This document shows positions 15,023 through 15,206 of a stretch of DNA of 64,000 nucleotides, one piece after another. Under the pieces are notes generated by a model that saw only the letters and a program-made list of their open reading frames with translations, was not told the DNA's origin and did not search any database. The position numbers were made by a program, and so were the translations under genes. Position 1 is the stretch's first letter; every line of letters begins with the position of its first letter. Source of the stretch: Lachnospiraceae bacterium (lineage in GTDB: Bacteria; Bacillota; Clostridia; Lachnospirales; Lachnospiraceae); contig JAFZGJ010000195.1 of the NCBI GenBank assembly GCA_017555455.1, positions 87,284 through 151,283 on the forward strand, given 5' to 3'.

Positions 15023-15206
15023 AGGCGGGCGGCGAAGTTGGAGAGTCGCGGCGGACTGTATTGGGTTAGTATAAAAGTATTATCATCTATTAAGGCGTGA
15101 GGATTTTTCCAAAGCGATAAAGTATAGAGAGAAGCAAGGGCAGTACTTGCACCCAATTCTAAAATCCGTTCCTTCGGGTGAGTGGGTTCGAATCCCACCC
15201 TGCCTA
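15023..15206 (+). tRNA. tRNA-Tyr (anticodon GTA) with ~102-nt intervening sequence after anticodon (5' part 15023-15060, 3' part 15163-15206)
   Basis: acceptor AGGCGGG/CCTGCCT, D-arm, AC stem GCGGA..TCCGT, long variable arm, T-arm GTGGGTTCGAATCCCAC. Confidence 0.5.

Follow-up and report, generated by a model that had tools for sequence, protein, structure and literature searches.

A tRNA-shaped insert in a phage tRNA-Tyr gene and a candidate family of nested tRNA introns

We examined a 64,000-nucleotide (nt) stretch of phage DNA (hereafter the window; positions 87,284 to 151,283 of contig JAFZGJ010000195.1 in the Lachnospiraceae bacterium assembly GCA_017555455.1), in which a tRNA-Tyr(GUA) gene at 15023-15206 is interrupted in its anticodon loop by 102 nt. 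The insert is itself shaped like a tRNA, and its edges coincide with the edges of a mature tRNA, the central feature that an earlier reading of the same sequence (the initial annotation) had missed. As read from the DNA, there is in our judgment an even chance that the insert is a degenerate tRNA, nested between U35 and A36 of the outer tRNA, that serves as a tRNA-shaped intron and would be removed by RNase P, a 3' endonuclease, and an RNA ligase.

A split tRNA-Tyr gene and its alleles

Default ARAGORN and Rfam searches listed 16 tRNAs in the window, none of them at 15023-15206, whereas the intron mode of ARAGORN, run on 15000-15230, called a tRNA-Tyr(gta) with a 102-nt intron there. When the halves (15023-15059/60 and 15162/3-15206) are joined, ARAGORN returns an 82-nt class II tRNA-Tyr whose cloverleaf is normal and whose loop reads CUGUAAA. 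The boundary is ambiguous by one A, the insert being either 15060-15161 (between positions 35 and 36) or 15061-15162 (36/37); comparison with relatives favors the former register, which is used below. On the plus strand, the 5' exon (15023-15059, positions 1-35, called by ARAGORN in both the spliced and the unspliced gene) comprises the acceptor strand AGGCGGG, the D-arm GCGA/TCGC, the anticodon stem strand GCGGA, and C32 U33 G34 U35. The 3' exon (15162-15206, plus strand, also from ARAGORN) supplies A36 A37 A38, the anticodon stem strand TCCGT, a long variable arm, the T-arm, and the acceptor strand CCTGCCT; it has the discriminator A, and CCA is not encoded. The window comes from an ENA metagenome contig of 151 kb; the same split-gene sequence occurs in independent ENA/Logan assemblies and is therefore not an assembly artifact. 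No second tRNA-Tyr was found in the tRNA array of the window.

Related phages, gathered through the neighboring protein encoded at 10687-12021 and designated here by L numbers, carry the gene in three allele states: uninterrupted (L085), with the 102-nt insert (the window), and with an unrelated 121-nt insert (L087/88, L093/94, and L110). The uninterrupted tRNA-Tyr of L085 (16877-16959) is 100% identical to both exons of the window (37/37 at L085 16877-16913 and 45/45 at 16914-16958), from which it follows that the insert is exactly 102 nt long; the split that the initial annotation had described is thereby confirmed. The 121-nt insert occupies exactly the site of the window's insert, between CUGU and AAA. 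Since the flanks of the L087 gene are about 98% identical to those of the window while its insert is wholly different, inserts turn over rapidly. Looking for the same insertion in related phages, as had been proposed, thus found the site in use by another insert, and the 102-nt sequence itself was not found. Exact and gapped pattern scans of IMG/VR gave no match to the 102-nt insert or the interrupted tRNA-Tyr, the same pattern scan of Joint Genome Institute (JGI) metagenomes gave 11 matches, all by chance and in non-tRNA contexts, and BLAST searches of GenBank phages with the region and with its 121-nt relative returned ordinary tRNA matches only, or none.

Anatomy of the insert

The insert (15060-15161, plus strand, with 15061-15162 as the equivalent alternative) opens at its first base with an acceptor-like stem, whose 5' strand ATTGGGT (15060-15066) makes 7/7 Watson-Crick pairs with the 3' strand ACCCAAT (15151-15157). 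Between these strands lie the dinucleotide TA at the place of U8-A9 and a D-arm-like hairpin, GTAT AAAAGTA TTAT (together 15067-15083, from alignment and direct reading); an enlarged center of 50 nt (15084-15133), predicted to fold as a long hairpin, that replaces the anticodon and variable arms; and a T-arm-like hairpin, GCAAG GGCAGTA CTTGC (15134-15150; 5 bp with a 7-nt loop), that abuts the acceptor 3' strand. A 4-nt 3' tail, TCTA (15158-15161), delimited by the tail-length test described below, stands in place of discriminator and CCA. All of these parts are on the plus strand. In a local alignment with 637 phage tRNAs, the D-arm-like part resembled the 5' part of the phage's own tRNA-Thr/Asp (..TTAGTATAA..GTA.TAC). 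The insert has no open reading frame (ORF) of at least 50 amino acids on the plus strand, in keeping with its earlier description as ORF-less.

At the positions set by the empty-site allele, the 7/7 and 5/5 pairs of the acceptor-like and T-like stems were matched by 18 of 2,000,000 shuffled sequences. The minimum free energy (MFE) fold of the 102-nt insert alone, a calculation that the initial annotation had recommended, is a four-arm cloverleaf (z = -2.15), and the double cloverleaf of the 184-nt precursor lies 2.2 kcal/mol above the MFE. The signals for RNase P and RNase Z that the sequence itself reveals are confined to a 12-bp acceptor/T stack, a U at position -1, and the length of the tail.

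As a separate observation, the T-loop type GGCAGYA, in place of TTCRANY, is found both in nested elements and in phage tRNAs that look genuine (suppressor CUA, Cys-like, and Asp-like), with 18 occurrences on the plus strand and 1 on the minus strand. Sites include L070 1390-1470, L068 4750-4830, L087 16640-16740, and window 15139-15145, and the loop type of the window insert is also shared with L024, L093:5834, and L041.

A family of nested tRNA-shaped inserts

Intron-mode ARAGORN (-i) on 82 related loci gave many interrupted tRNAs, the true junctions of which were set by comparing their exon bodies with 637 intact tRNAs. A structural search for a 7-bp stem with an abutting 5-bp/7-nt hairpin was followed by excision and by ARAGORN on the joined flanks. 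As criteria for the family we take pairing of the first 7 nt with nt -11 to -5, the 5-bp/7-nt hairpin abutting that stem, a tail of exactly 4 nt that reads N-C-C-A/U, and a preceding U together with a tRNA that, once the insert is taken out, equals an uninterrupted allele. The search and excision gave 18 distinct nested elements, which are 49-125 nt long; all lie on the plus (coding) strand, and all come from one clade of gut phages, which are uncultured, have genomes of 100-200 kb, and are without a close relative in GenBank; the minus strand yielded no nested element among 464,176 candidates over both strands. Their hosts are seven tRNA species: Tyr, suppressor(CUA), Ile(UAU), Lys, Gln, Glu, and Leu(UAA).

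The same frame delimits every member. In the tail-length test, the expected tRNA was restored only by a 4-nt tail in 18/18 elements, and removal left an exact 7-nt anticodon loop in 18/18. Tails are NCCA or NCCU except for the UCUA of the window. A U stands directly before the insert in 8/9 insertion contexts (U35 in the window), and among the phage's free tRNA genes U(-1) and an encoded CCA are each present in 14/16. The exons of the interrupted L045 gene match intact tRNA-Lys(UUU) of three relatives at 68/68 positions, and the L045 insert therefore begins with G1 of its terminal stem and ends with the A of CCA.

Several inner elements are recognizable as tRNAs in their own right. L068 4039-4114 is a regular suppressor tRNA(CUA), called by ARAGORN and scoring 47.8 bits with the Rfam tRNA model, that is nested within the anticodon loop of a tRNA-Ile(UAU) gene (L068 4004-4156). 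Further inner elements score 44.8 bits (L093), 43.9 bits (L087 15737-15799), and 31.4 bits (L040 4113-4180). For the 121-nt subfamily, found in tRNA-Tyr and in tRNA-Gln, RNAalifold recovered without guidance the terminal stem, the abutting 5-bp/7-nt hairpin, and two arms, with 12 compensated pairs, some of them in the terminal and T-like stems.

Two larger inserts share this frame. L082 carries a 737-nt insert in the same frame encoding an HNH protein 49% identical over 97 amino acids to the HNH protein of the window, and L075 carries a 476-nt insert in the same frame with a PDDEXK_5 ORF (E = 1.6e-21). In a side-by-side, unscored reading, the L082 insert looks in its 5' part like the L045 insert, which is ORF-less. 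The family thus behaves like mobile introns that occur with and without homing-endonuclease genes, and ORF-less copies such as that of the window probably derive from endonuclease-bearing mobile copies.

We gave up a family-wide covariance model, since the variable centers kept MAFFT from aligning the 5' strands. In this AT-rich DNA, looking by structure for tRNA-like genes that stand alone gave too much noise (458 plus-strand versus 305 minus-strand matches), and ARAGORN -i "introns" of 40-50 nt at position 33 proved to be artifacts that join neighboring tRNAs.

A family of intervening elements in tRNA genes had been suspected from the window alone, and such a family exists, with at least 18 inserts; its proposed fixed position at 36/37 does not hold, because members sit after position 34, 35, or 36 and the Tyr insert lies at 35/36. 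Nor does the second split tRNA of the window belong to it, as had been suggested from the first nucleotides of the two inserts: in this AT-rich sequence the two agree at 14/23 positions, a score that 2.6% of shuffles equal, and the other insert differs at its ends (UGAG...UUGACU, joined in a long terminal stem) and has no T-like hairpin and no 4-nt tail.

Comparison with self-splicing and bulge-helix-bulge introns

In Rfam searches of 14800-15500 with permissive filters, no family was matched at E ≤ 10, including group I introns (RF00028) and ribozymes; as a positive control, the group I intron that interrupts a relative's tRNA-Leu gene (L068 18056-18361) was detected at 50.6 bits (gathering score 50). 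A miniaturized group I intron would account for the anticodon-loop position and for the U that ends exon 1 (U35, in the 35/36 register). We nevertheless regard it as extremely improbable and have rejected a group I assignment: the insert has no match to the Intron_gpI catalytic core where the control has one, its last base is A and not G in both registers, and its 102 nt are about half the size of the smallest natural example known to us, the Azoarcus intron of about 205 nt.

The presence of group I introns in tRNA genes of the same clade, the U at the end of the 5' exon, as for group I introns, and the structured nature of the RNA (z = -2.15) would also suit a small intron of a new kind that acts as a ribozyme and splices or cleaves itself. 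This seems to us very unlikely, given that members of 49-125 nt have no common sequence core beyond the tRNA frame, that one member is an ordinary tRNA, and that no Rfam ribozyme was matched at the threshold above.

The bulge-helix-bulge (BHB) pattern, with two 3-nt bulges and a 4-bp helix across both splice sites, was rejected by manual pairing, since CUGU/A... and ...UCUA/AAA form no 4-bp central helix. The ends of the insert pair with each other, unlike the exon-intron pairing of BHB introns. No EndA/Sen-like splicing endonuclease was found among roughly 30 ORFs scanned with Pfam in the window, which covers 64 kb of a 151-kb genome. The earlier statement that the insert is neither a group I nor a BHB intron is upheld.

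Proposed excision and exon joining

If the insert is removed by tRNA end processing, the precursor would fold as two cloverleaves. Host RNase P would cut 5' of A15060, as at any tRNA 5' end, so that exon 1 would keep a 3'-OH. A 3' endonuclease of the RNase Z/BN type, measuring from the same acceptor/T stack, would cut after A15161 and give exon 2 a 5'-phosphate. While the outer tRNA body held the two halves together, the phage ATP-dependent RNA ligase (37793-39223) would seal the nick in the anticodon loop, yielding tRNA-Tyr with the loop CUGUAAA and a free tRNA-like RNA of 102 nt. We infer the RNase P and 3' endonuclease route because the edges of the inserts are those of mature tRNAs and because a U precedes them in 8/9 contexts; signals that define tRNA ends are the sole feature common to inserts of otherwise differing sequence and size. 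RNase P leaves a 3'-OH on the leader and RNase Z a 5'-phosphate on the trailer, and Thermotoga RNase Z and Escherichia coli RNase BN can cut directly after CCA.

The candidate exon joiner, acting in trans, is encoded at 37793-39223 on the plus strand (Pfam RNA_ligase; PHROG 968, E = 4.6e-61). Nearby lie a polynucleotide-kinase-like P-loop protein (43496-44008, plus strand), metallophosphoesterases (36072-36830 and 42300-42977), a Thg1-like 3'-5' polymerase (40408-41244), and an RNase T-like exonuclease (41343-42167). Pfam and PHROG matches bear out the kinase, phosphatase, and RNA-ligase set that the initial annotation had named. A protein-dependent route such as it had raised, with the phage RNA ligase as its last step, is the most plausible one; the kinase and phosphatase would be needless if RNase P and an RNase Z-type enzyme cut, because their cuts leave 3'-OH and 5'-phosphate ends.

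The kinase-like protein and the two phosphoesterases would form an end-healing set required only under a rival model, in which a metal-independent endonuclease of phage or host leaves 2',3'-cyclic phosphate and 5'-OH ends that the phage kinase, phosphoesterase, and ligase then heal and seal. A complete healing-and-sealing set is indeed encoded, PD-(D/E)XK proteins encoded within introns are frequent in the tRNA inserts of this clade, and the splicing endonuclease EndA is placed in the PD-(D/E)XK fold class. Yet the junctions lack BHB-like pairing, inserts of 49-737 nt have nothing in common but the frame for tRNA end processing, the insert of the window is ORF-less, and no EndA-like protein was found among the roughly 30 window ORFs scanned. 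The repair set is equally well explained as a counter-defense against anticodon nucleases (PMC7824862). We consider this model rather doubtful.

An alternative that we rate as unlikely, if a shade less doubtful, is a dead-end insertion, in which a tRNA-derived small-RNA gene has landed in tRNA-Tyr, the inner RNA, freed by tRNA processing, is the sole useful product, the halves are discarded, and the host's tRNA-Tyr is used. It would fit the intact suppressor tRNA that stands right beside an interrupted copy in L015, the tail of the window with its CUA instead of CCA, the circulation of uninterrupted alleles, and the conserved, covarying internal modules of the 121-nt subfamily, which suggest that the inner RNA has a function of its own. 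It fits less well with the state of the outer tRNAs. Interrupted alleles with a perfect cloverleaf occur in phages down to 53% identity in the neighboring protein, and among the interrupted Tyr alleles pairing is preserved at 8/8 stem substitutions, comprising three fully compensated D-stem pairs (L087), a G.U to A-U change (L110), and a G-C to G.U change (L093); these substitutions argue against the interrupted alleles being simple pseudogenes. The array of the window has no second tRNA-Tyr, the sole suppressor tRNA(CUA) of the L040 locus is interrupted while the syntenic L041 has an intact one, and removal leaves the exact 7-nt loop in all 18 elements.

Several observations weigh against excision by tRNA end processing followed by ligation. 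The window insert is not matched by the Rfam tRNA model (RF00005, threshold 29 bits), and its T-loop GGCAGUA and its D-loop lack the canonical U54/U55/A58 and G18/G19, which makes recognition of the elbow by RNase P uncertain. Its tail UCUA is one mismatch from NCCA and the sole exception among the 18 elements. CCA blocks the RNase Z of Bacillus-type hosts, which in other cases cleaves behind N73, and on the UCUA tail a cut after N73 would leave three extra bases on exon 2. Our searches found no homolog of the 102-nt sequence, and its internal fold is without covariation support. The compensated D-stem block of L087 could stem from recombination or co-conversion from a donor, not from evolution after insertion. 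The RNA ligase has no PDB relative by sequence, and the larger ORFs of the window showed neither an RNase P nor an RNase Z gene, so that host enzymes must be assumed. Splicing itself we infer from DNA sequence.

Relation to known systems and implications

The prevailing view is that tRNA introns in bacteria are ribozymes of group I or, rarely, group II that splice themselves, and that tRNA splicing by proteins alone belongs to archaea and eukaryotes. The architecture described here shares no defining feature of group I or BHB introns; the full-text literature that we searched, the coverage of which is incomplete and which leaves novelty unproven, held no description of tRNA-shaped introns or of RNase P-dependent tRNA splicing. 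With more reserve, and at a little under even chances, we suggest that these inserts represent a third kind of tRNA intron in gut phages, mobile and tRNA-shaped, in some cases a working tRNA and in others the bearer of a homing endonuclease, which the universal tRNA end-processing enzymes would excise and whose exons a phage RNA ligase would join.

In mitochondrial tRNA punctuation, plant mitochondrial t-elements, and the mascRNA of MALAT1, RNase P and RNase Z are guided by a mimic of the acceptor/T-arm. As in those systems, a tRNA mimic would here direct cuts at its edges within a longer transcript, but there the flanks are separate RNAs and are not rejoined, whereas the flanks of the insert are two tRNA halves that would need ligation. 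T4 species 1 and 2 RNAs are tRNA-like stable RNAs of phage tRNA clusters. The insert also recalls the tRNA-like RNAs of phage clusters and the bacterial Y-RNA-like YrlA (10.1101/312249), which mimic the acceptor, T-, and D-arms without an anticodon arm and lie among phage tRNAs; the DUF2828/DUF7788 (PHROG 850) and major-vault-protein-like genes of the window add to this likeness. Those RNAs, however, are free-standing, and none is known inside the anticodon loop of another tRNA.

Like the group I introns of bacterial and phage tRNAs (cyanobacterial tRNA-Leu(UAA), Azoarcus tRNA-Ile, and Patescibacteria; PMC3984707, PMC13011429), the inserts lie in the anticodon loop after a U, carry a homing-endonuclease ORF only optionally, and are patchily distributed among close relatives; both kinds coexist in this clade. 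Unlike them, the inserts have neither a catalytic core nor a terminal G, measure 49-125 nt, and possess a conserved acceptor/T frame and an NCCA-like tail. With archaeal and eukaryal BHB introns (EndA/Sen with RtcB or Trl1) they share a presumably protein-dependent route in which the tRNA body holds the halves, and, as with introns that yield functional RNAs (the C/D-box sRNA in archaeal tRNA-Trp; tricRNAs, PMC4536317), the excised insert may be a functional RNA. They differ in having no BHB, in lying at 34/35 to 36/37 and not at 37/38, in their bacterial host, and in that their own tRNA-like ends, not an exon-intron helix, would set the cut sites. In T4, a break in the anticodon loop is made by PrrC, healed by Pnkp, and sealed by Rnl1 (PMC3400036, PMC7824862). 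The window likewise encodes a ligase, a kinase, and phosphoesterases, and the T4 ligase also seals an anticodon-loop break, but the T4 break comes from host defense, whereas here it would be programmed by gene architecture; the ligase of the window is of the PF09414/PHROG 968 type and is not identified as Rnl1.

If the proposal is true, phage "RNA repair" enzymes would have a housekeeping role in splicing, and the maturation of phage tRNAs, including an amber suppressor for TAG-recoded late genes, would be tied to ligase expression as a built-in timer. Confirmation would establish a new intron architecture and, if the inserts are spliced, a route new to the bacterial world (RNase P, 3' endonuclease, and ligase), with a constitutive substrate for phage RNA ligase and repair modules. 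It would also explain why annotators miss tRNA genes in metagenomic phages (Tyr here; suppressor, Ile, Lys, Gln, Glu, and Leu elsewhere) and would offer a natural design for freeing one RNA from within another through tRNA processing.

Other inserts and neighboring features

The second split tRNA of the window (12844-13835) is a class II tRNA-Leu(UAG) with a 901-nt insert at 36/37 that contains an HNH ORF (12983-13768); its intact homolog is L093 4904-4988, with the loop CUUAGAA. This insert, which runs from UGAG to UUGACU and has an 11-bp terminal stem that covaries in L089, is of another class than the tRNA-shaped family and gave no group I match and no tRNA-like frame. A tRNA-like start of the insert (12881-12936, ending in ACCA) was dismissed as chance, the same 3' part pairing with eight alternative 5' partners. 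The HNH ORF contains two in-frame TAGs, and a tRNA(CUA) is encoded at 17680-17754; for these reasons TAG appears to be a sense codon in this phage. In-frame TAGs are likewise present in the HNH ORF of L082.

Inserts of about 455-490 nt in tRNA-Asp, -Ser, -Met, and -Asn consist almost wholly of a PD-(D/E)XK (PDDEXK_5) ORF, with less than 50 nt of noncoding RNA. This class (L034, L036, L040, L041, L043, L044, L074, and L075; also L085 14515-15061) has paired ends and a recurring ...CAAAC / ..AUUGAC.. motif, with no room for a ribozyme and no tRNA-like frame. Checked by hand, PD-(D/E)XK inserts showed no consistent 3-4-3 motif, and a BHB was rejected for them. A 2-nt stagger of the RNase III type does not hold generally: it fits the HNH insert and L034 but not the blunt L036 and L041. 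A 174-nt insert in a suppressor-type tRNA (L062 2752-2925) is group I-like in that its exon ends in U and the insert in G, and the motifs GCTAATTCGGTGAA / AGACTACAA are common to it and the L068 intron, which is confirmed; no group I intron known to us is as small as this one would be, if real.

Downstream of the tRNA-Tyr gene, 15220-15248 and 15396-15424 are identical copies of a near-consensus promoter (TTGACA-N17-TATAAT) that BLAST finds conserved in many related phages. Between them lie approximately 150 nt with a hairpin that resembles a T-arm (CTTGGG TGCGAAT CCCAAG, at about 15302-15320) and with a D-arm-like GGTGTAGCAAGGAGCAC; this stretch is possibly an unannotated small RNA. At 15455-15527 Rfam, but not ARAGORN, weakly calls a tRNA (30 bits, with a gathering score of 29); this sequence has a good T-arm (GGGTTCGATTCCC) and a poor 5' half. 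The tRNA arrays of relatives include genes for ROOL RNA (313-341 bits) and tmRNA (coordinates of the two L074 4263-4887, L034 1532-2182, L050 3915-4519, and L062 1053-1644; L085 11945-12289, L074 5570-5871, and L050 6949-7259), neither of which is present in the window.

The RNA-repair and ribonucleoprotein-like genes of the window extend over 21547-23070, 32695-35145, and 36072-46016 and also encode DUF2828/DUF7788 (PHROG 850, "RNA-binding protein"), major-vault-protein-like, and SPFH/Band 7 proteins. A protein with three dockerin type I repeats (28036-30147) points to a Clostridia host. In the window there are 10 copies of the motif ACAGCAA where about 3.5 would be expected, 8 of them inside the 9-kb tRNA array (12780, 14846, 15266, 15453, 16547, 16731, 17087, and 21294), often just 3' of promoters or between tRNAs; the motif recurs in relatives and may be a leader or processing signal.

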